Positions 24,467-50,483 of a stretch of DNA of 64,000 nucleotides are shown here, one piece after another (within the stretch, counting starts at the first letter, position 1; every line of letters begins with the position of its first letter). The notes below the pieces were generated by a model that was given only the letters and a program-made list of their open reading frames with translations, was not told the origin of the DNA and ran no database searches. Both the position numbers and the translations under genes were made by a program. The DNA is from Candidatus Binatia bacterium (lineage in GTDB: Bacteria; Desulfobacterota; Binatia; Bin18), in the NCBI GenBank assembly GCA_963664395.2, contig OY761159.2:3520001-3584000 (forward strand), given 5' to 3'.

Positions 24467-24484
24467 CGAGTGCGAGAGGCATAC

Positions 24485-26713
24485 ATGCGGATATGGCAGA
24501 CACGGGAGAGGATGGTATGGACGAGGTGCCGGGCGGTTCTGCTCGCAGGTGTTTTCCTGCTGAGTTCTTTCCTGCCGGGCCTTCCAGCGTCGGGCCGTGC
24601 TCAGACCGCTCCACCGGATCAACTTGATCAACTTGATCAACTTGATCGGATTGATTCCGGTGATCCGGCTGAGGTAACTGACAGTGAGGAAATGACCGAC
24701 AGTGCTGAGGAGTGTGTCCCTGTTGGCGAGACGGAATTCATTGAGTTCAACTTTGAAGGGGCCGACATTCGAGAAGTGATCCAGGGGATGGCCGCCGGGC
24801 TGTGCATTCACTATTCGATTGATCCTCGGGTGCAGGGAACGGTGACCATTCGGACGGCGAGCAAAATCAGTGGCCAGGATCTGTTCCCGCTGTTCCATCA
24901 GATCCTGCGTATCAATGGGATAGCCGCGGTGAAGGCCGGCGAAATCTACCATATTGCTCCGGTTGGAGAGGCAAAAACCAGGGTGCTGCTCATGCAGGAA
25001 AACACCCAGCGGTACGAAGCCTCCGCGCAGGACGAGTTCGTTATTGAACTGGTCAAGGTAGAGCATGTTGCGGTACAGAAAATCGTTGAAATCCTGCAAC
25101 CCTTTGTCTCGCCCGGTGGCGGGGCGGTCGCGTACGCGCGTGGCAATCTGATCATCCTGACGGACCTGGCGTCGAACGTGGTGCGCCTCCGAGACCTGAT
25201 CGCGACTTTTGATACCGATACGTTCCGGGAACTCCGCGCCCAGATATACCGGATTGAGCATGCCAATATCGAAGATATCGGCAAGGAGCTGGCCGCGATC
25301 CTCGAGCCCTACGGTGTGACGGTACAGAACATGGAAGAACGCGGGGTATATATTATTCCGCTCACTCGGCTGGACGCTATCGTCGTCATTGGCTTTAATG
25401 ACGAGATTTTCAGTCAGATTGAGAAATGGATCAAAGTCCTTGACGTCCCACCCGAAAAAGGCGGCAGTCGCGTAGTCCAGGTCTATTCGGTCGAGAATAC
25501 CAAGGCCGCCGACCTGGCCGGGGTGCTGGGTAATTTATACGGCGGCGGCGGAGGCCGAAGCAGCAGCGGGCGTGACCGGAAGAACGAGAATCGCCAGAAT
25601 GAATCGGGGGAGGGGCTGGGCCGCAGCGGTGGGCTCGGGGGGCGAGGGTCACGAGGGGGCGGAACCCAGAGTCTCCTGATCGATCCCAAAGAAGACGAGA
25701 ACCTGATATTCAAGGAAGAAGTCAGAATTGTCGCGGACGAGATCTCGAACTCACTCATTATTCTCGCCACCCCCCGCGATTACGACAGAATCCGGGACGT
25801 GCTGGTCCGCATCGACGTGGTTCCGCGGCAGGTGCTGATTGAAGCCATCATTGCGGAGATAACGCTCAATGACGACTTGCAGTTCGGGCTCGAATACGCC
25901 TTTGCCAGCGGGGGCTTGAAGAACCTGTTCGGCTCCGTAGGAGGGGGCGGCTCAAGTGGCATTGGGGTCGGAGAAGAAGGGGGTCTGAGCATCGGCAATA
26001 GTGCGCTGCTCCAGTCCGGAGCAAAGCGGGCGGTCAATATCGGCAAGAATGGGCTTTTTTCTTTTATCACCGACCAGGAGCATTTTCTGGCCCTGATACA
26101 CGCCGTCCACGCCCGCTCCAAGGTGAATATCCTGGCGACGCCGCATGTGATTGCCGCAGATAATCGTGAGGCGCATATCCTGATCGGTGAAGAGGTGCCG
26201 ATTCTGACCTCCACCCAACAGAGCACCCTGGCCAGCGCGAACATTGTGTCCAGCATCCAATATCGTGATACCGGCACGATCCTGACCATCCTGCCCCAGG
26301 TCAACTCGGCCGGGCTGGTGAATATGGAGATTCGCCAGGAAGTCAGCAACGTCGGGGTGACCTCGTTTGGCGATACCAACTCGCCCAGCTTCACTTCGCG
26401 TGAAACAGAAACAACCGTCGTCGTGCGCGACCGCGAGTCTGTCCTGATTGGCGGCATTATTGACGAACGGGTCGAGCGTTCCCGCAACGGCATTCCTTTT
26501 CTGATGGACGTACCGGTCCTGGGCCGCCTCTTCCGGGTCGAACAGGACAAACGGGAACGGACCGAACTGATCATTCTCATTACGCCCTACGTCATTCGAG
26601 ACCGGAACGAAGCACAAGCTGTGACTCAGGAGTTTACGAATCGGGTCGGCCGACTCCGAAAAATGATTGAAGGCGCCCGCCAGACCCAGCAGCCCGGCGC
26701 CGGCAAGAAGTAG
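24485..26713 (+). CDS. gspD: T2SS secretin
   Basis: FNFEGADIREVI N0 domain, QVLIEAIIAE, PFLMDVPVLG.LF, TELIILITP. Confidence 0.95.
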   Translation: MRIWQTRERMVWTRCRAVLLAGVFLLSSFLPGLPASGRAQTAPPDQLDQLDQLDRIDSGDPAEVTDSEEMTDSAEECVPVGETEFIEFNFEGADIREVIQGMAAGLCIHYSIDPRVQGTVTIRTASKISGQDLFPLFHQILRINGIAAVKAGEIYHIAPVGEAKTRVLLMQENTQRYEASAQDEFVIELVKVEHVAVQKIVEILQPFVSPGGGAVAYARGNLIILTDLASNVVRLRDLIATFDTDTFRELRAQIYRIEHANIEDIGKELAAILEPYGVTVQNMEERGVYIIPLTRLDAIVVIGFNDEIFSQIEKWIKVLDVPPEKGGSRVVQVYSVENTKAADLAGVLGNLYGGGGGRSSSGRDRKNENRQNESGEGLGRSGGLGGRGSRGGGTQSLLIDPKEDENLIFKEEVRIVADEISNSLIILATPRDYDRIRDVLVRIDVVPRQVLIEAIIAEITLNDDLQFGLEYAFASGGLKNLFGSVGGGGSSGIGVGEEGGLSIGNSALLQSGAKRAVNIGKNGLFSFITDQEHFLALIHAVHARSKVNILATPHVIAADNREAHILIGEEVPILTSTQQSTLASANIVSSIQYRDTGTILTILPQVNSAGLVNMEIRQEVSNVGVTSFGDTNSPSFTSRETETTVVVRDRESVLIGGIIDERVERSRNGIPFLMDVPVLGRLFRVEQDKRERTELIILITPYVIRDRNEAQAVTQEFTNRVGRLRKMIEGARQTQQPGAGKK

Positions 26714-26727
26714 AATCAGCCTTACAC

Positions 26728-26921
26728 ATCCCCTCCTTGGAGGGAAAGAGGAAACGTGTCCTCAACAGAGTAGGCAGATGTTGACACGTTTCCTCTTTGT
26801 GCCGCGTGAGCGGCGGGGTGGGTTTCTTCTGGGTTTCTTCTCTGGGGGGAAGCTAAGACAAAAGAGGCAGGGGGCAACCCACCCCGGCCCTTCGGGCCAC
26901 CCCTCCAAGGAGGGGAGCAGA
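26728..26921. repeat. family A REP pair, left unit interrupted by a family B element (26745-26798)
   Basis: TCCCCTCCTTGGAGGG[AAAGAGGAAACGTGTC...GACACGTTTCCTCTTT]GTGCCGCG...GGGGTGGG, then a forward GGCC unit. Confidence 0.85.
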
Positions 26922-26925
26922 GATT

Positions 26926-27315
26926 ATGAAGCGGAAGATCGTGCCGTATAACCCGCGATTGAAGGAACTCGCTCGGCAACTTCGGAAGCAGATGACGCGG
27001 GCGGAGGCTCTGTTGTGGCAACAGCTCAAGGCACGGCAGATGGAGGGCTGTGACTTTGACCGACAGCGCCCTATCGATGAGTATATCGTGGACTTTTTTA
27101 GTAAGGACCTCATGCTGGCCATTGAGATTGATGGAGTAACACACGATACCGAAGCTGGACAGAAAAACGATCAGCGGAGGCAGAAACGCCTGGAAGCTCT
27201 GGGTGTCCGATTTTTGCGCTTTCAGGATGAGGAGGTCAAGCAGAATCTGGAAGGAGTGTTGACGGTCATTCGGGGGTGGATCGGGAAGAATAAACCCACC
27301 CCTCCGAGGAGCTAA
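26926..27315 (+). CDS. DUF559 (Vsr-like PD-(D/E)XK) endonuclease-domain protein
   Basis: ARQLRKQMTRAE.LLW, FDRQ, YIVDF, IEIDG.TH, DQRR...G.RFLRF. Confidence 0.9.
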   Translation: MKRKIVPYNPRLKELARQLRKQMTRAEALLWQQLKARQMEGCDFDRQRPIDEYIVDFFSKDLMLAIEIDGVTHDTEAGQKNDQRRQKRLEALGVRFLRFQDEEVKQNLEGVLTVIRGWIGKNKPTPPRS

Positions 27316-27642
27316 GACAAAGGGGCAACCCACCCCGGCCTACGGCCACCCCTCCAAGGAGGGGAGCAGAACACATCCCCTCTCGGTCAAGGCTCTCACT
27401 ATCACCATAAGTGACATTTTTATCCCCTCCTCGGAGGGGTGGCCCGCAGGGCCGGGGTGGGTTCCTGGCACGCCCTCACGAGGAAACCCACCCCGCCGCT
27501 ACGCGGCACCCCTCCTGGGAGGGGATGGTGAAGGGAGCGCTACGCGGCACCCCTCCTGGGAGGGGATGGTGAAGGGAGCGCTGCGCGGCACCCCCTTCGA
27601 CTGGGCTCAGGACAGGCCCCCAAGAGGGGATGGTGAAGGGGG
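27310..27642. repeat. cluster of family A REP units, including three tandem ~41-bp units and a family C insert
   Basis: Units at 27327(+), 27422(-), 27485(+) and tandem copies; CCTTCGACTGGGCTCAGGACAGG at 27594-27616. Confidence 0.85.
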
Positions 27643-27692
27643 ATGCGGGTGACTGCTTGACAACCGAAACCGGGTTTGAACTAATACGCCAC

Positions 27693-28001
27693 ATGGCCGC
27701 CGCCGAAGACACAAGCTGGGAATACACGTTAGGCCGCATTGATGAGCGGACCGAGAACCTGGAGAAGCGCGTTGATGAACGGTTCGAGAACCTGGAGAAG
27801 CGCATTGATGAACGGTTCGAGAACCTGGAGAAGCGCATTGACGAGCGGTTCGAGCATGTGGAACAGCGTCTTGGACGTGTGGAGTTTGATGTGAAGGGTA
27901 TTCAGAAGACGATTGACGAGAAGATGCTCAACAAGACAACCTTCTTCACGTTTACCAGCGTTGGCGCCGGTCTCCTGGCCGCGATGATCGCGCTGAAGTA
28001 G
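27693..28001 (+). CDS. small coiled-coil protein with C-terminal membrane anchor
   Basis: 11-aa repeat RIDERFENLEK x3-4, hydrophobic C-terminus. Confidence 0.75.
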   Translation: MAAAEDTSWEYTLGRIDERTENLEKRVDERFENLEKRIDERFENLEKRIDERFEHVEQRLGRVEFDVKGIQKTIDEKMLNKTTFFTFTSVGAGLLAAMIALK

Positions 28002-28101
28002 CTGTTGTGAAACACTCCTGACTCAAGCCAACCCCTTTGCTATTGACACCTTTTCCAAGAGTACACTATAGTAATTTCATAATGCGCAAGGCTTTACGGG
28101 A

Positions 28102-28578
28102 GTGGGAAACGAGCACGTGGTGATGGAAAAGTCCGGACGCTACCAGCCAGCCATACGCGGCATCGTGGGGGGAGTTGTCCTAGTAGCAGCCCTGGCCGCA
28201 TTCCTTGGGTCGAGTCAGTCCGAAGCCGGGATTAAACAACGGGCCACGGCGTTCTGGGAAGCCCGTATCCAGGGTGACGACTTGACAGCCTATCAATACG
28301 AAACCTATGCCCACACCGGAGAGCTGACCGCCACGCAATATATCCAGGCCCTGTCGCCGATGCTGAAATACATGGCTTACACCATCGACACCATCCAGGA
28401 GCAGGAAAACGAAGCCTCGGTCACGGTCAATGTGCGATGCCGGATAGACATTCCGGGCATGCTTGACGTGCCCTTATCTATGCCGATAAAGGAGCGTTGG
28501 GTGCGTCTTGACGATAGCCAGTGGTACCGCAACGTCAAACCCGAAAAGCTCGGCAAGGCCGCCCGTCGGCAGGGCTGA
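28102..28578 (+). CDS. exported or membrane-anchored hypothetical protein
   Basis: N-terminal hydrophobic segment; TTGACA-18-TATAGT promoter at 28043-28072. Confidence 0.75.
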   Translation: MGNEHVVMEKSGRYQPAIRGIVGGVVLVAALAAFLGSSQSEAGIKQRATAFWEARIQGDDLTAYQYETYAHTGELTATQYIQALSPMLKYMAYTIDTIQEQENEASVTVNVRCRIDIPGMLDVPLSMPIKERWVRLDDSQWYRNVKPEKLGKAARRQG

Positions 28579-28586
28579 ATGTTTGC

Positions 28587-28615
28587 TTGACAGGGTATGG
28601 GATATTCACTATGGT
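28587..28615 (+). promoter_or_regulatory. near-consensus sigma70 promoter with ~190-nt leader
   Basis: TTGACA-17 bp-TATGGT; AAGGAG RBS before ATG 28810. Confidence 0.7.
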
Positions 28616-28809
28616 GCTCAGCAATCACGCCACACGGGGAAAATCGAAAGGCAATATTGATGTTCGGGCCGGACCGGAAAGGGCCATATGAAGGAGGCGA
28701 GGTATTGGCGAACACTAACGAAAACAAGTCCCCGGTGCCAGGTGGATATATGAGCAACACGACACATAAAACAGAAGAAAGAAGTTTTCAGGAAGAAAGG
28801 AGAGACGTG

Positions 28810-30328
28810 ATGAAGATGAATAAAATGTTTACGGGCCTAATCGCGTTGGTGGCGGGCGTTGCCCTCTCGGCGGGGAGTGCCTTTGCAACCAAGGGTTACT
28901 ACCATAGGTGACCCGGCCAGGATGAAACTGGTCCCTTATTATGAGACCGGAGAGCTCGCTGACCGCGATTGTCAATGTCCAGAACCTGTCGCCGCAAGAG
29001 GCCACTACTGCGGCTCTGCAATGGCTGTTACGGCTGCTCAGGCTGCATTGGATGCTCTTAATGATATGGAGTTGAGCCTGACCATGCAGATACAATGCGG
29101 GCTGATGCTGAGATGGCCCTTGCGGATGCTATGGATGCGCTTTACACCGAACACCTCTTCGTTGTCGTGAATGTCCACGACGCAATGGGTATGATGATGG
29201 AGGATGCGTCAGAGAACTGTGTCTGGCAGAGAACCAGTTCGGATATGTCATTCTCACGGGGTTTGAGATGATGCATGGCGGAGATATCCCCAACCGCAGC
29301 GCTTGGTGCTCTCGATGGGCTGGTGACATCCCCGCATACGGCTATGTGAAGTCATGGCGGAGGGTCAGAAATGGTACGGCTGCGAGGGCCGCCCCGGCGA
29401 CCTGACGGATGGAGGCAGGTTACTGAGCCAGATTGCTGAGTAGCGGATTGTAGGCACTGAGTCCATTTGGCCAGCTCGCCGCCTGGACCATGTCCAGGAC
29501 ACTGGCACTGGTGCTTCTTCGGGACGGAAGTGATCGACCCTGCTCGATGGACCATTCTCCAGGACGTTGGGAGTGGTTTCTTCGGGACGGAATTGCATGC
29601 CCGACTGGCCTGCTATACAATTACAATGATGGCGGATGAGATGCTGAGCCACTCGATGATGCTACTGCCTGCCCGAATGATGCTACCGCTAAGTGTGACC
29701 CAGCAATATGACAATAGGAATCCGACTTCATGATCCGGTGCGGCTTGATTCCCGAACGGCATGATAACAGGGGCGATCTACCAATGCATGCGACGGTACT
29801 GGGACTGACTATGCCGCTGTCTGATGATGCGAGGCAACCACTCCTCGACTCCATGGTCATGCCATCGCCCGGTACGATACTGGGGCTGATGATTCCATGT
29901 CTTTGTGTGGTTGGCAACAGGCCACGACGATGAGGATGCCCCATGCGAGCGATGTCCCGGCCCGCTTGCGTAATCGTGATGCGAAGACGGGACGATGGCA
30001 TGATTCCAGGGGACCATGTATCGCCGGGTGATGATGGCCCATCGCAAGTCCCCGCCCCGACCATAAGGTCACCATGATAGACCCGATGGTGATGCTGGGT
30101 CATGTACACCGACATGTGATGCGGGCGACCGCGGTGTGCTGCGAATCACGATGCCGGATGGCAGCCACGCCGGCATGGTGTGGACCCATATCTCTCAGAT
30201 GAATGGAACAACTTCCGCATGAACTTCCCTGGGTACAACATGGCCAATCCGATGCCTGATGAGATGGGTGTTGCTGACGTGAGGCTGATGGAAACTGAGG
30301 TGGCTGCGGCCGCCTGCATGGCCCGTAA
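28810..30328 (+). pseudogene. multiply frameshifted secreted protein (~500 aa), candidate S-layer protein
   Basis: Sec signal MKMNKMFTGLIALVAGVALSAGSAFA; protein-like fragments continue across frames (KLVPYYETG, AQAALDAL, ENQFGYVIL); strong terminator after TAA. Confidence 0.6.
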
Positions 30329-30391
30329 CTCATCGTAACACGGCTCTAACAGAAGGAGGCAAGGGTTTCGGCCCTTGCCTCCTTTTTTTGT
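30326..30391 (+). terminator. ~67-bp stop+terminator repeat, copy 1
   Basis: TAAC...AACACGGCTC...GGAGGCAAGGG-TTTCGG-CCCTTGCCTCC-T7. Confidence 0.85.
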
Positions 30392-30430
30392 GTGTGATTG
30401 TCGGGCAGGACGAGGAGAAGGGGGTATGCG

Positions 30431-30529
30431 ATGACCGGCTATGAAGAACCGGCCATGCGTGCGGCCCTGGCCCTGGAAGCGGCCAACCAATCCAATTGGG
30501 CAGAGATTGCCGGCGTCATGCTCATATAA
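30431..30529 (+). pseudogene. truncated small membrane-protein gene
   Basis: MTGYEEPAMRAALALEAANQSNWAEIAGVMLI* resembles the N-terminus of the 32007 protein (AALQALVAPNWVDIGG); ends at a repeat boundary. Confidence 0.4.
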
Positions 30530-30671
30530 ACTCCCCCCCCCCCCAGATATTTTCGATTAAAAGGCAGATAGATTCTCCATCCCCTCTTGGGAGGGGTGCC
30601 GCGTAGCACCTGTCCTGAGCCGAGTCGAAGCCTGTCCTGAGCCCTAGTCGAAGGGGGGCGGGGTGGGTTTC
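30528..30671. repeat. shared linker + family A REP with two tandem family C inserts
   Basis: AACTCCCC...CAGATAT.TTCGATTAAAAGGCAGATAGATT also at 31743; CCTGTCCTGAGCC...GTCGAAG x2 at 30609-30654. Confidence 0.8.
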
Positions 30672-30781
30672 GTCATCTCGCACCACCGGGCTGTCTTCAC
30701 GTAAGCCCTCTAGCCCTTGACGCTGTTTTGTGCTCTGCTCTATTCTCAAATGCACAGAAGGAGAAAGGGAGGACGTACCGT

Positions 30782-31006
30782 ATGACCCGTAAACGACCTG
30801 ATGGCACGACGGAAGGAATGCGGGCGCTCAGTGTGTCGGAGGGGAGGGGTGAAGCAGAAGCAAAAAAAATAGGGCGGAAGGCCCCTGTGGATTCCACGGA
30901 AGACGATTACGATTACATGATTGGGCAGGCGTGCGTTCGGGATTTGAAAGCTGGGCGCACCCACATCGTTCCTGACGAAGAATGGTTGCTGCGATTGATG
31001 AGCTGA
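30782..31006 (+). CDS. putative antitoxin
   Basis: Small protein with acidic EDDYD...LKAGRTHIVPDEE tail, overlaps a RelE-like gene; TTGACG-18-TATTCT promoter. Confidence 0.55.
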   Translation: MTRKRPDGTTEGMRALSVSEGRGEAEAKKIGRKAPVDSTEDDYDYMIGQACVRDLKAGRTHIVPDEEWLLRLMS

Positions 31007-31176
31007 AGTCTCCTGACGTGAGTCATAAGAAGGTGAAGAAGCTCAAAGGGCGGAAGAAGGGAGAACCACCGATCTACCGAGTCCGTGCTGGAAATTATCG
31101 GGCGTTGTACACGGTTGATGAGAATGATGGCGTGACCATCCTGCATATCCGTCACAGAAGCGACGCCTACAAGTAG
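30982..31176 (+). CDS. RelE/ParE-family toxin, N-terminally short
   Basis: VKKLKG...YRVRAGNYRALY...ILHIRHRSDAY. Confidence 0.8.
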   Translation: MVAAIDELKSPDVSHKKVKKLKGRKKGEPPIYRVRAGNYRALYTVDENDGVTILHIRHRSDAYK

Positions 31177-31182
31177 AATACC

Positions 31183-31209
31183 AAAAGCCCGGTCACATGG
31201 CCGGGCTTT
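31183..31209 (+). terminator. intrinsic terminator
   Basis: AAAGCCCGG-TCACATGG-CCGGGCTTT. Confidence 0.7.
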
Positions 31210-31252
31210 CTATCTCCACCACCTCCCATGGGCTAGGGTGGGCAGAAGCTAC

Positions 31253-31320
31253 TAACATCACCCCTAACACGGCTCAGACACACGGAGGCAAGGGTTGCGG
31301 CCCTTACCTCCTTTTTTTGT
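31253..31320 (+). terminator. ~67-bp stop+terminator repeat, copy 2
   Basis: TAACATCACCCCTAACACGGCTCAGACACACGGAGGCAAGGGTTGCGGCCCTTACCTCC-T7. Confidence 0.85.
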
Positions 31321-31422
31321 CCGCGATCAGACGCGTATTTTGCTGGCAATAAAGACTTGGTGGCGGAGGAGAAATGAAAAAGCCCGGCTGATTGGCCGGG
31401 CTACAATGTTCGCAATGCCTGT

Positions 31423-31662
31423 CTACTCTGGTAGAAACTTTGCCGCCAGGGCGCCGAGAGAGAGCAACAAGGCTATCACGCTCACAAAAACACTGTTCTT
31501 GCCTTTGGTCGCCTCGTGTTTCGCCTCTTCCACTTCTGCTTTCGTCGCAATATGAGGGAGGGTCGCTTCTATTTTGGCAAGGCTCACTTTTATATCAGTG
31601 ACATCCGCCTTCATTTCATGGATGTCTGTTTCTATCCGCTGAAGGCGTTCATCTGTCTCCAT
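31423..31662 (-). CDS. small coiled-coil protein with C-terminal TM helix
   Basis: ERLQRIETDI...ATKAEV, hydrophobic tail; AGGGAAGAG RBS; hairpin terminator at 31377-31402. Confidence 0.75.
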   Translation of the reverse strand: METDERLQRIETDIHEMKADVTDIKVSLAKIEATLPHIATKAEVEEAKHEATKGKNSVFVSVIALLLSLGALAAKFLPE

Positions 31663-31742
31663 GATCTCTTCCCTCTATCACATTATTCATCCGCATACCT
31701 TATAATACATAAACTATTGTGCAAGAACCTGCTATGCGGTCC

Positions 31743-31981
31743 AACTCCCCCCAGATATCTTCGATTAAAAGGCAGATAGATTCCCCATCCCCTCTTTGTG
31801 CCGCGTAGGGGCGGGGTGGGTTTCGTAGTTTCGCCGCGCTGCCCGAACGAAGAGGGAACCCACCCCGGCCTGCGGCCACCCCTCCAAGGAGGGGAGTATC
31901 CACCCCGGCCTGCGGCCACCCCTCCAAGGAGGGGAGCTGGAGGGTCTTGGCTTTGTGTTCTGCCGGGCGAGTTGGTAGGGT
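31743..31981. repeat. linker + family A REP units + repeated promoter segment
   Basis: Reverse unit 31786, forward units 31857 and 31899, then TTGTGT-17-TAGGGT shared with 32564-32592. Confidence 0.8.
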
Positions 31982-32006
31982 GAGCGTCAAGGGTTGGGAG
32001 GGAACT

Positions 32007-32243
32007 ATCAACAATCTTACATTCTCGCCGGAAGCGGTTGCGGCTCTGCAAGCGCTGGTCGCCCCGAACTGGGTGGACATCGGGGGGCTTATCATCGGGC
32101 TGGCGCAATGTGGCTTGATTTATTACGGCCTGAGACTAATGAACCTGGGGTCCGCGGAACGCACAGCGCAACTCACGGCCCAGCACGAAGAAGCCATGAC
32201 GGCCCTCAAGGAACTCATCCACCGGACCACTTCTCGTCCATAA
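32007..32243 (+). CDS. small single-TM hypothetical protein (ATC at the expected start)
   Basis: GGAGGG RBS then ATC; NWVDIGGLIIGLAQCGLIYYGL TM, HEEAMTALKELI coiled tail. Confidence 0.55.
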   Translation: MNNLTFSPEAVAALQALVAPNWVDIGGLIIGLAQCGLIYYGLRLMNLGSAERTAQLTAQHEEAMTALKELIHRTTSRP

Positions 32244-32301
32244 ACGCCAGACACCCGCCGAATCCCCTGCGGTTATAGCCCTTCTTATCGACGATTGGGT
32301 G

Positions 32302-32369
32302 TAACATCACCCAGAACACGACTCAGACAGCAGAAGACAAGGGTTTCGGCCCTTGCCTTCTTTTTTTGT
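32302..32369 (+). terminator. ~67-bp stop+terminator repeat, copy 3
   Basis: TAACATCACCCAGAACACGACTCAGACAGCAGAAGACAAGGGTTTCGGCCCTTGCCTTC-T7. Confidence 0.85.
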
Positions 32370-32377
32370 CCTGAACA

Positions 32378-32592
32378 ATCCCCTCTTGGGAGGGAAAGAG
32401 GAAACGTGTCCTTAATAGAGCAGGTAGATGTTGACACGTTTCCTCTTTGTGCCGCGTAGCGGCGGGGTGGGTTTCGTAGTCTCGCCGTGCTGCGCTGGCC
32501 GAACAGGAACCCACCCCGGCCTTCGGCCACCCCTCCAAGGAGGGGAGCTGGAGGGTCTTGGCTTTGCGTTTTGCCGGGCGAGTTGGTAGGCT
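32378..32592. repeat. family A REP pair with family B insert (32395-32448) + promoter segment
   Basis: Same composite as 26728-26826; TTGCGT-17-TAGGCT ends 9 nt before ATG 32602. Confidence 0.85.
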
Positions 32593-32601
32593 GGGTGCCC
32601 T

Positions 32602-33109
32602 ATGGCGAGCGCAACATTTGATACCTTACACGCGGCCAAGGCGCTGACGGCGGCGGGCTTTGAGGCACAGCAAGCCGAGGCAATCACGGACACGATCCGA
32701 GAGGCGTTTACCGAGAGTGTAGCCACCAAGGCCGATATCGCCGGCCTGGAAGCAGCCGTAACCGCAGATATCGCCGAGGTCAAGGCGGAGTTGAAGGCCG
32801 ATATCGCCGGCCTGGAAGCAGCCGTAACCGCAGATATCGCCGAGGAAGGCGGAGTTGAAGGCCGATATTGCTGAGGTAAGGACGGAAATCGCCGAGGTGA
32901 AGGCCGAGTTGAAGGCAGATATCGCCGAGGTGAAGGCGGAGTTGAAGGCCGATATTGCCGAGGTAAGGACGGAAATCGCCGAGGTGAAGACGGAAATCGC
33001 CGAGTTGAAGGCCGAATTGAAAGCCGACATCGCGGGCATATACAAGCAGCTCTGGCTGGTAGCGCTGGGCATCGTGACGGCAGTCGCGGCGATTGTGAAA
33101 CTGTTGTAA
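32602..33109 (+). CDS. DUF1640/CCDC90-like coiled-coil membrane protein, copy 1 (frameshift ~32846)
   Basis: FDTLHAAKALTAAGF..QQAEAI head, ATKADI neck, ADIAEVKAELK repeats, TM anchor. Confidence 0.8.
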
Positions 33110-33119
33110 GGGACAGGCT

Positions 33120-33388
33120 ATGGCGAGCGCAACGTTTGATACCTTACACGCGGCCAAGGCGCTGACCGCGGCGGGCTTTGAGTCCCAACAAGCCGAGGCG
33201 ATCACGACACGATCCGGGACGCCTTCACCGAGAGTGTCGCCACCAAGGCCGACATCGCCGAGGTGAAGACGGAAATCGCCGAGTTGAAGGCCGAGTTGAA
33301 AGCCGACATCGCGGGCATATACAAGCAGCTCTGGCTGGTAGCGCTGGGCATCGTGACGGCCGTCGCGGCGATTGTGAAACTGTTGTAA
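33120..33388 (+). CDS. DUF1640/CCDC90-like protein, copy 2 (frameshift ~33207)
   Basis: Near-identical head and anchor DNA to copy 1, short stalk. Confidence 0.75.
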
Positions 33389-33402
33389 GCAGGACAGGTT
33401 CT

Positions 33403-33705
33403 ATGGCAACGGCGACGTTTGATACCTTACACGCGGCCAAGGCGCTGACCGCGGCGGGCTTTGAGGCCCAACAAGCCGAGGCGATCACCGATACGATCCG
33501 GGACGCCTTCACCGAGAGCGTGGCCACCAAGGCCGACATCGCCGAGTTGAGGGCGGATATAGCGAGCCTGGAAACGCGGCTGGTCGAACGGATAGACGCG
33601 GTGGAAACGCGGGTGGCAGAGCGTTTTGAGGCGCTCTACAAGCAGCTCTGGCTGATGGCGCTGGGCATCGTGACGGCAGTCGCGGCGATTGTGAAACTGT
33701 TGTAG
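33403..33705 (+). CDS. DUF1640/CCDC90-like protein, copy 3
   Basis: Intact 100-aa ORF, same head and anchor, different stalk. Confidence 0.85.
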   Translation: MATATFDTLHAAKALTAAGFEAQQAEAITDTIRDAFTESVATKADIAELRADIASLETRLVERIDAVETRVAERFEALYKQLWLMALGIVTAVAAIVKLL

Positions 33706-33835
33706 ATGTCCGGGAACCCCTCAGTCCTCCTTGCTCAGGGGGAATTCAAGGATATCAAAGGATATCAAAGGATATCATCGGATATCATCCGTGTGTTCCA
33801 ACTGAGACCACGCAGAAACTATTGCCAACAGAACC

Positions 33836-35038
33836 ATGAGCGAGCAGGCAGAGCCGATTATCCACAGCTACGACCTGGGCAAGTGCTATAAGCTGTACGC
33901 CCGCCCGTTTGACCGGCTCAAAGAACTCTTTGCCTGGCGTGGCCGCCACTATTCCCAGGATTTCTGGGCGCTCCAGGCCGTCAACTTTAGCGTGCAGCCG
34001 GGCGAGTCGTGGGGCATTATCGGGCGTAACGGGGCAGGCAAATCGACCCTGCTCAAACTCATCAGCGGCGTCACCCGACCGTCCACCGGCACGCTGACCG
34101 TCTCGGGCCGCATCGGGGCGCTGTTGGAACTCGGCACCGGCTTCCACCCGGAATACACCGGGCGGGAGAACATCTATTTTTCCGCGGCCATGCTGGGGCT
34201 TGAGCAGGCCGAAATCGAATCCGTCCTGCCCGACATTCTGGACTTTGCCGATATCACCGAGTTTATCGACCGCCCGGTCAAAACCTATTCGTCCGGCATG
34301 TTCATGCGCCTCGGATTTGCCGTGGCGACCAGTATTCGACCGGATATCCTGATTACCGACGAAGTCCTGGCCGTTGGGGATGAGGCCTTTCAGAAGAAGT
34401 GCATTCGCCGCATGGAAGCGTTTCTCGAACAGGGCAAGAGCCTGCTGTTCTGTTCCCACAGCACCTACCATGTGCGCAAGCTGTGCCAAAAAGCGTTGTG
34501 GATCGACCACGGCGAGGTGCGCCTGTCAGGAGCAGCGGCTGAGGTCACCCTGGCGTATGAAGATTATCTGCGCGACATTGAGGCCCAAGCGGCAGAAGAG
34601 CACGCGGAAGCCCGTCACGCGCCCGACCTGTCGGCCTACAGTCGGCTGCAACAGGTGCGGTTGCTGAACAGCGACGATCAGGAGGTCACGACTTTTGCCA
34701 TGGGCGACACGGCGCGGCTTGAAATTATTGCAGAGACACCGGACGGGGAGGCGCCGGTCATCGCGGTCGGCTTGGTGCGGAACGATCTGACCTCTATCTA
34801 TGGCGTCTTTAGTGATATGGATCAGGTCGAACCGCAGCGCCTTGACGCCCACACGTTTCGGATCGTGTACGAATTGTACGACCTGAGCCTCCTGCCGGGC
34901 AGCTACACCCTCCGGGCGCACGTCCTTGACCGGCAGGGTCTACGCATGTTTGATACCGTGGAAAAGGACTTTTCGGTGCGGGGCGACACGCGCGAGCTGG
35001 GGCTGTGTCGCTTGCCGCATCGCTGGACGTTTGAGTAG
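33836..35038 (+). CDS. wzt: polysaccharide ABC transporter ATPase with C-terminal carbohydrate-binding domain
   Basis: GRNGAGKST, YSSGMFMRL, DEVLAVGD, ~150-aa C-terminal extension. Confidence 0.93.
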   Translation: MSEQAEPIIHSYDLGKCYKLYARPFDRLKELFAWRGRHYSQDFWALQAVNFSVQPGESWGIIGRNGAGKSTLLKLISGVTRPSTGTLTVSGRIGALLELGTGFHPEYTGRENIYFSAAMLGLEQAEIESVLPDILDFADITEFIDRPVKTYSSGMFMRLGFAVATSIRPDILITDEVLAVGDEAFQKKCIRRMEAFLEQGKSLLFCSHSTYHVRKLCQKALWIDHGEVRLSGAAAEVTLAYEDYLRDIEAQAAEEHAEARHAPDLSAYSRLQQVRLLNSDDQEVTTFAMGDTARLEIIAETPDGEAPVIAVGLVRNDLTSIYGVFSDMDQVEPQRLDAHTFRIVYELYDLSLLPGSYTLRAHVLDRQGLRMFDTVEKDFSVRGDTRELGLCRLPHRWTFE

Positions 35039-35049
35039 AAAATCGTCCT

Positions 35050-35832
35050 ATGTTTGCCGTCCTGACGACGCATCGCTATCTCTTGGTGACCATGGTCCGG
35101 CGTGAGATCGGCGCGCGCTTCGCCGGTACGAGTCTGGGCGGCCTGTGGTCCTTGATCCAGCCGGCCATCCTGTTGGGCCTGTACACCATGGTGTTCTCGG
35201 TCATCTACCGGGTGGGCGAGGTCGAAGGCGGGCATGGCTTTCCGGAGTTTGTCTTCTGTGGCCTGTGGCCGTGGCTGGCGTTTCAGGAAGCCTGCCTACG
35301 CTCCGTTGCTGCAATCACGGCCAATGCGAATCTGGTGAAAAAATTGCAATTCCCGTCAGAACTGCTGGTCGTGGCTGCGGTGCTCTCCAGCTTTCTGGTG
35401 CAGGGAGTTGGTTTCCTCCTCTTTCTGATCGGTCTGATGGTGTGGAAAGGCACGCTCATAGGTGCTGCCGGGCTGCTGCTGTGTATTCCCCTCGGTCTTT
35501 CTCTGCTCCTGGCGATTGGGCTGGGCATGCTGCTCGCCTGTGGCAATGTCTTCTTTCGGGATGTCGAACAACTCACCACCGCGGGTTTTACGCTCTGGTT
35601 TTTTCTGACGCCGATTCTGTATCCGGCCAGTCTCATCCCGGAATCCATCGGCCCGCTGTTCGTATTGAACCCCATGGTCGCGATTACCGATGCCTACCGT
35701 TCTATTATTCTGTCGGGGAGCTTTACCCCAGGCGGCACGTTCGTGTACAGCGTGTGTTGTGCGGTTGGATTCTTCTGTTTTGGCCAGTATGCGTTCCAGC
35801 GCTGCCGCGGGTTTTTTGCCGATTATCTCTAA
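35050..35832 (+). CDS. wzm: polysaccharide ABC transporter permease
   Basis: LGGLWSLIQP, LVKKLQFP, FFRD, FLTPILYP, LNP. Confidence 0.93.
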   Translation: MFAVLTTHRYLLVTMVRREIGARFAGTSLGGLWSLIQPAILLGLYTMVFSVIYRVGEVEGGHGFPEFVFCGLWPWLAFQEACLRSVAAITANANLVKKLQFPSELLVVAAVLSSFLVQGVGFLLFLIGLMVWKGTLIGAAGLLLCIPLGLSLLLAIGLGMLLACGNVFFRDVEQLTTAGFTLWFFLTPILYPASLIPESIGPLFVLNPMVAITDAYRSIILSGSFTPGGTFVYSVCCAVGFFCFGQYAFQRCRGFFADYL

Positions 35833-35850
35833 GAACGTGAGAAAACCGCT

Positions 35851-36693
35851 ATGGCTGATCGTTTTGATTACGCCGACTACGAATTCACGCTGCGTGACAG
35901 GCAGTGGAACCGTGATGCGCTTGCCGTGCATGTCTCCCATTTCCAGGGCTGTCGTAAAGTCCTGGACCTCGCCTGCGGCTCGGGTATTTTCCTGGAACTG
36001 TTGGCCGAGCAGGATATTCCCGCCATTGGCGTTGAACGCAACCCAGACGTTGTGGCCTGGGTGAAACAGCACGGCTGGGATATCATTGAGCAGGATGTCT
36101 TTCCTTTCTTGGAACAGACGCAGGAGACCTATGACGGCATTTTTTGCTCGCATTTTCTTGAGCACTTGCCCTTTGCCGAGGTCCTGCGTTTTTTTGAATT
36201 ACTTGCGCCTCGCGTCAGTGCAGCGGGAACCGTGGTGATTGTTGTGCCGAATCCCGAGTCGGTCCGTATGCAGTTGTTCGGATTTTGGCGCGATCCTGAG
36301 CATGTCCGTTTCTATCACCCTGAGCTGCTTGAAGCGGTCTTGCGGCACTTCGACTTTCAGGTGACGCACACAAATCGCGCAGACATCCCCTTTGCCATTG
36401 CCCCGCCCGCATTGCTTCCATTTTCCCATCGGTCGGAATCGAGCACGCGGCAGCCCGACCCGCGGCGGAGTTGGTTGAAAGAAAAAGCGAGAGCCACCTA
36501 CTTTCGATTTTTACGTCTGTTACGGATCACCCCCTATTCGGACCTGTTAGCTGTGGAGGAACACATTCGCCAACAGATGGAAGTTCAACGAGGGACCCTC
36601 GTCGGGTGGGCAGACAAAACAAATGAGGCCGTCAACCAGATGTGGGCTTGGCCCGACGATGTGTATATTGTCTGTCGCAAGACGGAAGCCTAG
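35851..36693 (+). CDS. class I SAM methyltransferase (WbbD/WsaE-like glycan-capping type)
   Basis: VLDLACGSG, SHFLEHL, VPNPE, FWRDPEH; next to wzm. Confidence 0.85.
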   Translation: MADRFDYADYEFTLRDRQWNRDALAVHVSHFQGCRKVLDLACGSGIFLELLAEQDIPAIGVERNPDVVAWVKQHGWDIIEQDVFPFLEQTQETYDGIFCSHFLEHLPFAEVLRFFELLAPRVSAAGTVVIVVPNPESVRMQLFGFWRDPEHVRFYHPELLEAVLRHFDFQVTHTNRADIPFAIAPPALLPFSHRSESSTRQPDPRRSWLKEKARATYFRFLRLLRITPYSDLLAVEEHIRQQMEVQRGTLVGWADKTNEAVNQMWAWPDDVYIVCRKTEA

Positions 36694-47739: not shown

Positions 47740-47858
47740 CCTTAGGACAGGTGCATGTTGACTGTTTGGCGGTGGCTCTGGTAAATGTGGATACTGTGGA
47801 AAGATGGAAAAGTCGTATGTGGCAAGAGCGTGTATCACCGAGGGGTGAGGGGGAGAAA

Positions 47859-50483
47859 ATGAAAGCAATATTGACAGCAAAAGTAGGCATGTTCCTGGTT
47901 GTTTCCTCAGTCCTCGCAATATGGACGCTCCTGGCCGCCCAGCATGTTCAGGCGCACACGACAAGGAGTCTCTGTCCACTCCTAGTTGTAGCAGCCTTCC
48001 TAACGGCTGACTGGATTTTTTGATGAGGGCAGATGGCCCGTATGCCTCAAGTAGCAGCACTTAACCAGCATTCCCCAGTCTCAACAAAGAAAGGAACCGG
48101 TGAAACCGGAGGGGTAATAAAAACTATTATCACTACGCCAAGATTACGGTCCCCGCACTGACGGCAGGGGAGCTGATGGTGTCTGATGCAACGAACCCCT
48201 GATGGTCCCTCGGACTGGATTCTCTGTCGGGGAAGACAAAGGATTGCGGAATCTCGACCGAGCTACACGACGGCCCATTGCCGAAAAACCAAGCCGACGC
48301 TAATGCCGCGGCCCAAGACCGAGCGCCGAAACCGGCCTTGTTAAGTGATTGCCGGATTCCTAACCCGCTGACCGGCTGACCAAACCGAGTGACATGCATA
48401 GCGCCGCTGCCGATGACGCCTTAAGCACAGCCGCCACCGCCTTGCTCGCCTCCGCCTTAAGGAAGCCGGACGCTGACCATGCGCCGCTGACGCCGACGCC
48501 GACGCTACGACTGCTGCCGACCGCCGAGGGGCCGAAATGCCAGCACTGACGCTGGTCGCCGATACCGCCGGATGTCGCCACCGTGAACGGACTAAGCTCC
48601 GCGGCTCGCCTTGGAACCGCCGCCACCGCCTTACCACTGCCGCCACCGCCTTAGACCGCCGCCGACGCCTTAGACAGCCGTCATATGGATGTCGCATGTC
48701 CATTAACACATTGATCTCGTCGGGAGATGAAGAATATGTGGTGGTCGTTTCGGTCCCGGCAGGTAACCATGCCCTGCCATTGACCGTCTCGTTCGAAAGG
48801 CGTGATGGCTACTGCCGCGTGGATGATCAGAACGGACAGGACGAAGGCTCGTTTACGAGCCCGAATAATCAGCGGATTATCCGCACCCTCGATGACCACC
48901 GCCACCGACCCTGGGCTCCTGACCGTGAAGACGACAGGGAGCGCGGTGGATACGAAGGAACACTTGCGGCTGTACCACCGGCTAGATCGTTGATGGACGA
49001 GGGTAGTGGGGGCAATTTTGAGATTGTTCTCACCAGTAAAGGCCGGATGCTACTACTTATACCTGTGATTGTAGAGGGGACAGACCCGCAGTGAGAGAGG
49101 GGATTACGGCCTGAAGGTGGAGTTCGGAGTCGCAACTTAGGTAATGATAGCGCCCCAGGTTCGAGTCATCGAAAGCGGACCAATACGCTCTGACGCCCGG
49201 TACCGATAATGATGATCTTGAGATGCAGGGATTCCGGACGCGCGGATTACTTCTTTTTTACTTCTGAAGACCGGCTACGGATTCCTGACCGTAGAGACCA
49301 GAGGAAGCCCACGACGGTGTTACAACGGAGACGAACACCACAGGGACGCTCTTTTCACAACTGAAGGGCAGGTTGTGACGGACACTGATAGTGGCACTGG
49401 CAACAATTTCCTGATTCGTGCGCCAATCTCGCCGGGGATTACATTGTAGAGGTGAAGGGGTCGAGTTCATCCACGACAACAACGGACGAGGGGACTACGT
49501 GTTGGTGAACGACCTCCGAAACGGCTACCACTCCTCGGGGATTGCCCTCATCGATGGGAGGCGGTACTACGGGATGCGACTGCGCAAGGCTGTTATTGCG
49601 CTACTGGAGCGGAGTGTGAACCCCCTACTCAATCAATGTCGACAAAGCAGGCACCCTGCAAGTGAAGACGACAGGGACATCGATACGATTGGGGTTCTCT
49701 ATGGGCCGGATGGCCAGCAGATTGCTGAGGACGATGATAGTGGCGACGGACATGAATTTCATGATTCACTCAGGCTGTCGAGGCCGGACAGTATATTGTG
49801 ACGGTAGAGGGGAAGGCCGAGATACGGTGGGTGCTTACACCTTAGTGGTGAACTTCGTAGAGAGCATTGTTGTTGGGACGACAAACCAAGTGGCGGAGTT
49901 GGAGCAGGAGCGGGATACTGCGCTGGCAGAGCGGAATTGCGCGGACTGAGCGGGATGATTTGAGGAGGTGGATGATTTGAGGGACGAGGTCGCTCCGGTT
50001 ACGGTCGATGCGACGGGTAACTTGGGGAATCCTCCCAATGACGGTGGAGTCAGAAGCGGCATTGGGCTCATCTCGGGCTGGGTGTGTGCGGCCAATGAGT
50101 GTCGAGATTCGTATTTCTAATGCCCAAGGATTCTCAACAAGGCAACCCTGAATGCCGCGTATGGCACGACCCGACCCGATACGGTCGGGCAGTGTGGCAT
50201 CAAGAGCCCCAATACCGGGTTTGGGATGACGTACAACTTCAATCATCTGGACGAGGGACATATACGATCGGAGCCTATGCGGACGGTCTCGACGAGCAGA
50301 TTGGCCCGAGCCGCTACTTTTGAGGTCGTCCATCTCATGGACTTTGCAGCCATTGATGACGATAGATTCCTGCGAGGATTGAAGGGTGAGTGTCGCGCGG
50401 ATGATTTCCCTGAAATGGGAGACAAGACGATTCTGGAGTGGGAACAGAGTATCCAGAACTTCGTGATTAGCGACGTGCAGTAA
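47859..50483 (+). pseudogene. multiply frameshifted secreted multidomain protein (Ala-rich region, PPC-like domains, Cys-containing C-terminal domain)
   Basis: Signal peptide MKAILTAKVG...HVQA; DTIGVLYGPDGQQIAEDDDSGDG; GLISGWVC; EWEQSIQNFVI*. Confidence 0.6.

Follow-up and report, generated by a model that had tools for sequence, protein, structure and literature searches.

How does a gap between conserved genes come to hold an array of small, shuffled genes that has no recombinase of its own? The question arises at a locus of a Candidatus Binatia bacterium, where short direct repeats alternate with small, unrelated genes between the secretin gene gspD and the ABC exporter genes wzt and wzm. 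The window that we analysed is the whole 64,000-nt stretch C1:3520001-3584000 of a 5.04-Mb assembly in 14 contigs, which is a metagenome-assembled genome with 5.4% contamination. Our DNA search covered 41 genomes, from which 15 homologous loci were taken, oriented and searched with profiles made from the window's copies of three modules: a terminator-like repeat (T), a promoter-like repeat (P) and a linker. The comparison is between species, not strains.

The answer that we favour, with somewhat better than even confidence, is that the locus is a hypervariable islet peculiar to the genus, in which the promoter and terminator modules common to the units may double as portable homology for general recombination. 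T, P, the linker and a family of repetitive extragenic palindromic (REP) sequences recur as co-oriented direct repeats, and blocks have been gained and lost between direct repeats. The comparison supports the cassette-like, additive and shuffling nature of the locus, and the array in the window is a small, partly decayed version of it.

Repeated modules of the locus

T is a 70-nt unit made up of a short 5' motif, an 11-12-bp GC hairpin and a T-run. Its three copies in the window are all on the plus strand: T_A (30324-30393) lies behind sec, a gene for a secreted Met-rich protein that forms the conserved left anchor of the array, and T_B (31253-31322) and T_C (32302-32371), which both start at TAACATCACC, are of the type found behind sec. 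The repeat finder gives 74-84% identity between copies over 70 nt, and blastn-short finds three matches in the whole 5.04-Mb assembly, all at the locus (E 1.6e-11 to 6e-8 between copies). All three hairpins are listed by a terminator consensus scan. The sequence-only reading that preceded this work had put a direct repeat near 30326, 31253 and 32302, together with the linker and a joint REP and promoter segment, and the repeat finder and blastn-short locate each of them in those places. Since blastn-short places all copies of T, linker and P at one locus, these repeats are not due to chance.

With T_B as the query, 12 of 28 genomes of the genus (G000 included) have 1-4 BLAST matches each, nearly all at the homologous locus; outside it, T was found at a second locus of G011 (L029), beside a sec paralogue. 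In the collections scanned, T is confined to the genus. Eight genome-contig records matching the T hairpin pattern are titled Candidatus Binatia (five), Thermodesulfobacteriota, Dehalococcoidia and Obscuribacterales (one each); seven align to the locus, and the Obscuribacterales record (L043) is unrelated. The Dehalococcoidia record (L042, a 5575-nt contig of a metagenome-assembled genome) is homologous to the Binatia locus, with the order o28-sec-T at 73-77% identity, and is probably misbinned. A metagenome scan with the same pattern gave three matches, none of which aligns to the locus.

The profile search found 46 non-overlapping T copies, spread over 14 of 16 stretches with 0-6 in each locus, and every copy has the orientation of the genes that flank the array; weaker matches on the opposite strand are the palindrome itself. 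Their alignment shows a conserved 5' motif, a 12-pair helix, a small conserved loop (which we take to be of the stable UUCG kind), a T-run and then GT. The T-run is present in most copies, with exceptions that include L027 13868, L014 13493 and L016 8383. Within the helix, 93.6% of cells are paired and 37 double-sided changes fall in four of the 12 pairs, which none of 500 shuffles reached, and pairing falls to 34-64% when the partner columns are slid. These compensatory changes indicate that the hairpin is kept by selection. Because a covarying hairpin with a sense-strand T-run stands behind genes, T reads as an intrinsic terminator.

The genes on the 5' side of the 46 copies, as read from the map, are most often sec (14), the sTM family of proteins with a single membrane helix (12, some of them remnants) and the ccTM family, i.e., coiled coils with a C-terminal membrane helix (6). 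Rarer neighbours are ParE (2), YafQ (2), AIPR/AbiU (1), a coiled-coil protein that we call C13 (1), a 73-aa open reading frame (ORF; 2) and a 119-aa ORF (1), and five copies have no ORF before them. T therefore stands behind at least eight unrelated gene families. The gap from stop codon to T profile is mostly 5-27 nt, but it reaches 70-90 nt in some copies, T_B and T_C among them.

Across genomes, T copies are 72% identical within a gene family and 67-69% identical between families. T_A is nearest to the sec-type T of relatives (90-92%), and T_B and T_C are likewise nearest to sec-type T of other species, at 89% (L022) and 84%. Neither is closest to a T that follows ParE or sTM elsewhere, and T_B is only 82% identical to the ParE-associated T of L027. 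The terminator of the anchor gene has therefore been copied to other places inside the array. The bases upstream of T_B were considered as a remnant of the sec C-terminus and rejected, as their in-frame hand translation resembles no sec tail. The downstream flank of T_B resembles the leader of a large secreted protein of relatives over 6-9 nt only, and we make nothing of this likeness.

P has the layout TTGCGT, 17 nt, TGG-TAGGCT, and blastn-short finds two copies in the genome, both at the locus and on the plus strand: P1 (31933-31985), before the sTM gene, and P2 (32544-32600), which ends 2 nt before the ATG of a DUF1640 gene, an arrangement common to 10 other loci. It matches the plain sigma-70 consensus weakly, and the promoter scan did not list it. 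Presumably P carries an extended -10 element with a start site about 7 nt after it, giving a near-leaderless mRNA. In these 11 loci, the DUF1640 ATG follows the end of P after 2-3 nt and no ribosome-binding site intervenes, which suggests leaderless translation of DUF1640.

The 15 homologous loci hold 19 copies of P and 8 of the linker, all on the plus strand. DUF1640 follows 13 of the 19 P copies, sTM-family ORFs follow 4, and an unrelated 118-aa gene (C16) follows 2; of the latter, the L019 case comes from the P listing (gap 51), and the one at L027 16385 was assigned by the locus map, the P listing naming another ORF there. Across species, P is 85-97% identical, against 72-82% for the adjoining coding DNA.

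In the window, P adjoins REP sequences, and the joint segment is repeated as 31791-31896/32442-32547 (88%) and 31900-31982/32511-32593 (95%). The REP parts have 33-73 genome-wide matches in blastn-short, and the REP core motif has 111. The earlier idea of a promoter carried about by the REP pair therefore holds in one half only: P does stand before three unrelated families, but the REP pair is not its carrier, because there are 111 REP cores and only 2 copies of P, and because in four relatives homology to P starts only at window 32561-32562, past the REP part.

The linker copies L1 (30532-30588) and L2 (31740-31796), both on the plus strand and both given by the repeat finder, are 57 nt long and 91% identical, and they are the only two in the genome. 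L1 opens with a C12 tract (30533-30544), one of seven homopolymers of at least 10 in the 5-Mb genome; L2 has C6, and the public run X9 has an additional CC, so the tract could be prone to slippage. REP-type repeats of the genome-wide family lie at 30575-30700 (33 blastn-short matches, with inverted-repeat pairs), 31791-31932 (REP pair 1, with 73 genome matches for the REP and P segment) and 32442-32546 (REP pair 2). A second repeat family, with a perfect 16-bp inverted repeat, lies at 32372-32448 and has a 92% copy at 26728-26798; it has many copies in relatives' loci and is separate from the GGGGTGGGTT-type REPs.

Gene order and cargo across relatives

The frame kept across loci is gspD ... 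sec-T ... P-DUF1640-wzt-wzm. Sec with T stands on the left in 13 of 15 loci and P-DUF1640-wzt on the right in 14 of 15, with P-sTM-wzt in L020. Between sec and P-DUF1640-wzt, content and order differ in all 15 of 15 loci, and the length of the variable part lies between about 1.3 kb in L023 and about 25 kb in G018. Units of the window turn up in new surroundings in other loci, which bears out the cassette-like mosaic that had been proposed for the window. The earlier reading had also suggested comparing the gspD-wzt interval across strains and reads; between species, the comparison shows gain, loss and reordering with breakpoints at the repeats, the order not being identical.

Individual units illustrate this. 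The toxin-antitoxin (TA) pair of the window is 92-95% identical in L014 and L027, and its ccTM gene has 90-92% identity to those of L027 and L019. For wzt, identity is 74-88% across all relatives and 76-79% in L014, L027 and L019; because the TA and ccTM genes are more alike than wzt in the same relatives, the cargo moves. L027 keeps the order TA-T-ccTM (90-94% identical), L019 runs from ccTM through linker-P, C16 and a second linker-P to DUF1640 without an sTM unit, and L020 has P-sTM directly before wzt without DUF1640. The sTM family amounts to 29 ORFs in 11 loci, and the ccTM and DUF1640 families are also multi-copy in arrays.

Several joins show where blocks have come and gone. Between L012 and the G018 stretch, common blocks are 96-98% identical, and a 3.6-kb block present in G018 and missing from L012 is bracketed by a 188-nt direct repeat made up of the ccTM 3' end and T. 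In L016, the AbiU gene has a T copy on either side, and the likeness of the two continues for about 25 nt into their downstream flanks; in L020, C13 is likewise enclosed by two T copies, whose 57-nt core rows are identical. In the window itself, the unit P1-sTM-T_C lies between 190-nt REP and P repeats that match exactly over 43 nt. It is at T, P, linker and REP that the breakpoints are located. Some joins have damaged genes: L013 has a 40-aa sTM with an internal deletion, and remnants of ccTM and sTM genes stand before T in G018, L012 and L027. A precise cassette system would not be expected to cut an sTM ORF at the linker, as in the window, or to leave such gene remnants before T.

The AbiU gene (L016 6656-8377) is an AIPR/AbiU abortive-infection gene (Pfam 6.3e-51, PADLOC AbiU 1.2e-50), and since it sits between two T copies, the islet also takes up defence genes. 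Arrays of eight relatives hold a 210-310-aa IS1595 zinc-ribbon protein without a DDE domain just upstream of P-DUF1640 (e.g., L015 10660-11289). This IS1595-derived protein is missing from arrays with 2-5 T copies, including that of the window, and its nearest relative in the window's own genome is at C1:637405-638310. Two full IS1595-type transposase genes are present in the G018 array. The large secreted protein occurs in the arrays of nine relatives, not in this one. Its C-terminal ~150-270 residues belong to a hugely expanded family, with 130 tblastn pieces at 67 places in the window's own genome, one of them in the window at 47796-50477.

Genes of the window and their state in other samples

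On the left, gspD (24470-26713, plus strand; Pfam Secretin, Secretin_N and GspD N0) is the conserved landmark, with 76-84% nucleotide identity in relatives. It is followed by a REP-flanked DUF559 endonuclease-like gene (26926-27315, plus strand; Pfam DUF559, 6.3e-31), which is single-copy in the genome and was seen at the locus in five genomes (G000, G018, G002, G016 and G011). Its orientation is opposite in G018, G002, G016 and G011, which suggests inversion between the flanking REPs. The sequence-only reading had proposed this nuclease as a starter of recombination, a role for which only its nearness to the array speaks: it was not seen beside gspD in six genomes, three of which (L027, L011 and L016) have 4, 2 and 3 T copies. 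Next comes cc27 (27630-28001, plus strand), an ORF for a coiled coil with a C-terminal membrane helix that is conserved in relatives; its matches in Pfam and PADLOC are weak coiled-coil matches only.

Sec (28804-30338, plus strand) has no long ORF in the window. Read in three frames against the intact 474-aa gene of L011, it is a signal-peptide-bearing gene with several frame changes, and tblastn likewise returns it in pieces in several frames. In 12 relatives, sec is intact, with ORFs of 417-608 aa that end 9-21 nt before T. The stretch 28908-30111 has next to no cover at 90% likeness in the public runs X7, X9, X11 and X1, which by itself shows nothing, and an X1 contig over 28122-29047 differs by 38 letters and 7 gaps. 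Decay to a pseudogene, an unusually variable allele or a consensus that was resolved badly could each account for the state of the window's sec. In Atlas, it matches only unnamed clusters (0.94).

The small genes that the sequence-only reading saw between the repeats are there as described, but several are in a poorer state than it supposed. Right after T_A, with a 'gtgtgtgattgtc' leader, lies a truncated 43-aa ORF (30398-30529, plus strand). It belongs to the sTM family, clustering with 28 other sTM-family ORFs from 11 loci; its homology to L016 stops at 30513, and the ORF is cut where L1 begins. Only 8 nt separate T_A from the leader and ribosome-binding site of this ORF, and because no promoter-like site lies between, its expression would need read-through. 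The TA pair (30728-31176, plus strand) is a decayed antitoxin/ParE pair, whose toxin covers ParE_toxin profile positions 45-89 of 89. A 105-nt deletion (30980-30982), with its junction at a short 'gaatgg'-like repeat, has taken the antitoxin end and the first 26 toxin codons, so the window lacks the full-length toxin with adjacent antitoxin that marks a type II toxin-antitoxin system. L014 has a full 90-aa ParE, and intact TA forms occur in L014, in L027 and in contigs of X9 and X11.

The ccTM gene (31423-31662) encodes a 79-aa coiled coil with a C-terminal membrane helix and an ATK motif; it lies on the minus strand and has its own terminator at 31381-31402. The sTM gene (31947-32243, plus strand) encodes 98 aa with a single membrane helix and the C-terminus ..ALKELIHRTTSRP; its start is uncertain, and it is 88% identical to that of L020. 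It has no family in Pfam, NCBIfam, PADLOC or Atlas (best Atlas 0.81, below lead level). PADLOC also gave no match for the window's ccTM and DUF1640 proteins, and neither Pfam nor NCBIfam gave one for a 158-aa ORF or the antitoxin.

Three DUF1640 genes follow on the plus strand, two of them frameshifted. Copy 1 (32602-33109; ORFs 32602-32874 and 32855-33109; Pfam CCDC90-like) has internal 21/33-nt repeat runs (14 copies of a 42-nt family), and it is frameshifted because its second 88-nt repeat is 2 nt short. Copy 2 (33120-33388) reads as two ORFs, with the frameshift near 33206, and copy 3 (33403-33705; Pfam CCDC90-like, 6.4e-08) is intact. Two copies score 33.8 and 33.1 bits with PF07798, just over and just under the cut-off of 33.5. 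The stalk length of the DUF1640 proteins varies between copies and species. They have a VATKAD motif and a hydrophobic tail, the ATK motif being that seen in the ccTM protein, and a passage of PMC4786415 describes DUF1640 proteins as membrane-anchored coiled-coil stalks with an ATK beta-layer motif. On the right, wzt and wzm (33836-35832, plus strand; Pfam ABC_tran with Wzt_C, and ABC2_membrane) encode the ABC exporter and are the conserved landmark.

Parts of the stretch occur in public runs from six studies, which are sponge metagenomes or coded host organisms; Binatota of sponges are also a subject of published work. The order REP-TA-T_B-ccTM-L2 is present without difference in contigs of X9, X11, X7 and X1 (four runs from four studies), and P1-sTM-T_C-hairpin is present without difference in contigs of X7, X9 and X11. 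All listed public contigs stop at REPs, so this agreement is read within contigs and not across REPs. By a rough measure, word depth is about equal for modules and flanks in X9, X11 and X7; for example, in X9, it is 47.1 and 40.2 for the modules and 46.8, 45.6 and 43.6 for gspD, DUF559 and wzm. Contigs of X9 and X11 have 105 extra letters at 30980/30982, which make the intact TA form, and in X7, two contigs end and begin exactly at the deletion site, so both TA forms probably coexist there. X9 and X11 also have an additional A at 33206, which, reading against copy 3, would restore the frame of DUF1640 copy 2. The joints 27365>30580 and 31932>32509 were disregarded, as they lie in REPs with sides of 24-26 letters and probably come from other REP places.

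Origin of the array and its place among known systems

On the reading that we favour, the islet between sec on the left and P-DUF1640-wzt-wzm on the right would be built of small expression units, mostly for tail- or head-anchored coiled-coil membrane proteins (sTM, ccTM and DUF1640), and in relatives also of TA pairs, an AbiU gene, the large secreted protein and IS1595 relics. The units would carry two locus-restricted modules, P as a putative promoter and T as a putative 70-nt intrinsic terminator, and we infer that these two, together with linker and REP, supply portable stretches of homology at which general recombination takes place. Units could then be added, removed, swapped and truncated through unequal crossing-over, gene conversion, Campbell-type insertion of excised circles or homology-facilitated illegitimate joins, and no dedicated recombinase would be needed. 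The array may have begun as duplicated small membrane-protein genes that later took up TA, Abi and other genes.

Several points weigh against this account. The homology of T_B, T_C and the L020 copy to sec-type T starts at the same TAAC in three unrelated contexts; in other species, TAAC is the sequence after the sec stop codon, and it is the left edge of the T_B and T_C homology. General recombination does not predict such a fixed left end, whereas a site-defined element does. The window's T copies share only 12-21-nt exact runs, which are short for RecA-type exchange, so T-to-T crossing-over would have to be rare or to have used closer copies. The first joining of AbiU or ParE 9-12 nt before T is left unexplained. 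Contigs from four studies show the same modules with small variants only, implying slow turnover at the scale of species, and no recombination event was caught in progress: the array is stable within the species as far as seen, and shuffling is visible between species. Finally, the promoter activity of P and the terminator activity of T are things that we infer from sequence.

A different account would need no recombination role at all. T and P would be the native 3' and 5' untranslated regions of small membrane-protein genes, kept for their function, in an array of tandemly duplicated paralogues, into which the TA and AbiU genes were merely inserted. We hold this to be unlikely, although not negligible. 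In its favour, arrays hold several copies of the sTM (29 ORFs in 11 loci), ccTM and DUF1640 genes, T identity is slightly higher within a family (72%) than between families (67-69%), and P (85-97%) is more conserved than the coding DNA beside it (72-82%). However, T also stands behind sec, ParE, YafQ, AbiU and C13, and P before three unrelated families. Moreover, T_B and T_C are of the sec type and not of the type paired elsewhere with their upstream genes, and the 3.6-kb indel between G018 and L012 is bounded by a direct repeat that contains T.

Doubtful, and to our minds more so than a paralogue array, is the view that T is the recombination site of an integron-analogous cassette system, in which a recombinase encoded outside the array would excise units of gene plus T as circles and insert them at the T next to sec. 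The enzyme could be one of five tyrosine recombinases, including a XerC/D-like pair, or a hairpin-binding enzyme. The layout speaks for this view: all 46 of 46 T copies are co-oriented and each would stand behind an ORF, as attC does behind cassette ORFs; T is bound to the locus and not dispersed; TAAC marks its left end in three contexts; L016 and L020 each have a single gene enclosed by T copies; and T_B and T_C are copies of the T type next to sec, which is what insertion at the proximal site would produce. The cargo (TA pairs, an Abi gene and small ORFs) is typical of chromosomal cassette arrays. The T hairpin has 11-bp arms around an asymmetric 6-nt centre, and such an 11-6-11 arrangement is the geometry of tyrosine-recombinase core sites.

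The enzymes and sites themselves speak otherwise. The best match to the integron integrase profile TIGR02249 in the whole genome is 70.9 bits, against a cut-off of 265. The five tyrosine recombinases (Phage_integrase) lie at 1.59, 2.79, 2.92, 3.32 and 3.37 Mb, the nearest at least 148 kb from the window, and no recombinase is in the window or conserved beside arrays. The sequence-only reading had noted the lack of an integrase or transposase in the window, and the searches agree for tyrosine recombinases, resolvases, rve and IS1595 transposases, other transposase families not having been searched; the whole genome has one resolvase fragment and no rve. An attC site is an imperfect palindrome (R''/L''...L'/R') whose GTTRRRY end pairs with RYYYAAC. 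By eye, the 46 aligned T copies lack these end motifs: the 3' end, a T-run with GT(C/G), is never GTTRRRY, and the 5' TAAC finds no complement at the 3' end. By the same reading, there are not the two or more attC sites that would make a CALIN (a cluster of attC sites lacking an integron integrase). Instead of an attI site and a single Pc serving promoter-less cassettes, the units carry their own P (19 in 15 loci) or other promoter-like sites, and the ccTM gene is on the strand opposite to the array, unlike Pc-driven cassettes.

Arms that covary and a T-run are more in keeping with an RNA terminator than with a site bound by protein, genes are truncated at many imprecise junctions, and some stop-to-T gaps are 70-90 nt. 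Neither circles nor excision joints were seen; such joints as were found lie in REPs and have sides under 30 nt. The earlier description of the array as integron-like is thus not supported in the strict sense, with no IntI, no attC motifs, a covarying terminator in their place and junctions that cut genes. Nor is T a miniature inverted-repeat transposable element: its ends, TAAC... and ...TTTTTTTGT, are not inverted repeats, and copies occur only at the locus and at the sec paralogue of G011. Inverted doublets do occur genome-wide among the REPs, but not for T, P or linker. One weak match resembling a REP-associated tyrosine (RAYT/Y1) transposase was found (G000:C1:3119393), with 24.2 bits against a cut-off of 23, over profile positions 60-120 only.

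A looser form of the idea, improbable but kept alive because of the sharp left end of T and the unexplained joining of foreign genes, is that T is the attachment site of an unseen cassette system, either integrase-less or served in trans, whose hairpin with its fixed TAAC end doubles as a recombination site. If this were true, units of gene plus terminator would be captured at the 3' end of the anchor gene and would arrive equipped for expression and termination, and the sponge-associated Binatia would have evolved, independently of integrons, a T system that is their functional analogue.

T might instead be chiefly a regulatory RNA, i.e., a source of sibling 3'-UTR-derived (untranslated region) small RNAs or an attenuator within an operon, with its 5' motif as the functional RNA. 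About 20 conserved nt upstream of the hairpin are dispensable for termination, and between T_A and the next ORF, whose leader and ribosome-binding site begin after 8 nt, nothing resembles a promoter. However, no Rfam family matches T (in a scan of 26000-36000 with E up to 1, the only matches were four weak ones that involve neither T nor P nor linker), and such a role would leave the shuffled gene order unexplained. We give it little chance as the main function of T; it is compatible with recombination at shared modules and does not replace it. Lastly, although 5.4% contamination, public contigs that break at every REP and unusual frameshifts might raise the thought of strain haplotypes strung together at shared repeats by the assembler, this is very improbable, as arrays with several T copies are present in 11 further assemblies from different species (several of these assemblies being single-contig), L027 has the same order TA-T-ccTM, contigs from 3-4 studies match TA-T_B-ccTM-L2 and P1-sTM-T_C-hairpin without difference, and module word depth, on the rough measure above, is near that of the flanks in X9, X11 and X7.

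If recombination at shared modules is the right explanation, short regulatory modules would do double duty, as functional elements and as internal homology, and a gap between core genes could become an additive, shuffling array that needs no machinery of mobile elements. Such a mechanism would be relevant to the growth of flexible islets and defence hotspots in genomes that have few mobile elements (here, five tyrosine recombinases and no rve), to how cassette systems such as integrons might have started and to how sponge symbionts vary small envelope proteins beside a glycan exporter. In practice, T and P could be used as markers to fish variable cargo from sponge metagenomes.

Our limited literature search found no described terminator-bounded array of this kind, but several known systems share parts of its design. 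Chromosomal integrons and CALINs also have co-oriented hairpin repeats behind small ORFs, TA-rich cargo, variable content and a shared promoter piece. The present locus differs from them in having no IntI, in repeats without attC ends but with a T-run and arms that covary as in an RNA terminator, in units with their own promoters, in junctions that are often imprecise, and in a repeat that also terminates a conserved anchor gene. The pdif modules of Acinetobacter are likewise small, often TA-bearing and flanked by 11-6-11 sites, and they move although they encode no integrase. However, pdif sites are dif-like, alternate in orientation and occur on plasmids, whereas T is co-oriented and chromosomal, has variable arms and is a putative terminator.

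REP/REPIN-RAYT systems and mosaics of the bacterial interspersed mosaic element (BIME) type resemble the locus in that genome-wide REP pairs lie at most module borders. T, P and linker differ in not being REPs, being restricted to the locus and not forming inverted pairs, and REPs elsewhere lack P. Variable islets beside O-antigen or glycan export clusters offer a likeness of position, given the wzm/wzt neighbour and the AbiU, ParE and YafQ genes of relatives; the cargo here, however, is mostly small coiled-coil membrane proteins, and a modular promoter/terminator frame is not described there as far as the same limited search goes. The minimal mobile elements of Neisseria are also alike, with two conserved flanking genes (here, sec and DUF1640-wzt), different gene sets between them and no recombinase encoded by the element. 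Uptake by homologous recombination would fit the repeat-bounded 3.6-kb indel and the T-bracketed genes, but the exact runs of 12-21 nt between the window's T copies are short for it. In the Binatia locus, the differences are between species, not strains, and homology also lies inside the array (T, P, linker and REP), so units pile up in tandem, up to six T copies and about 25 kb, instead of replacing one another.

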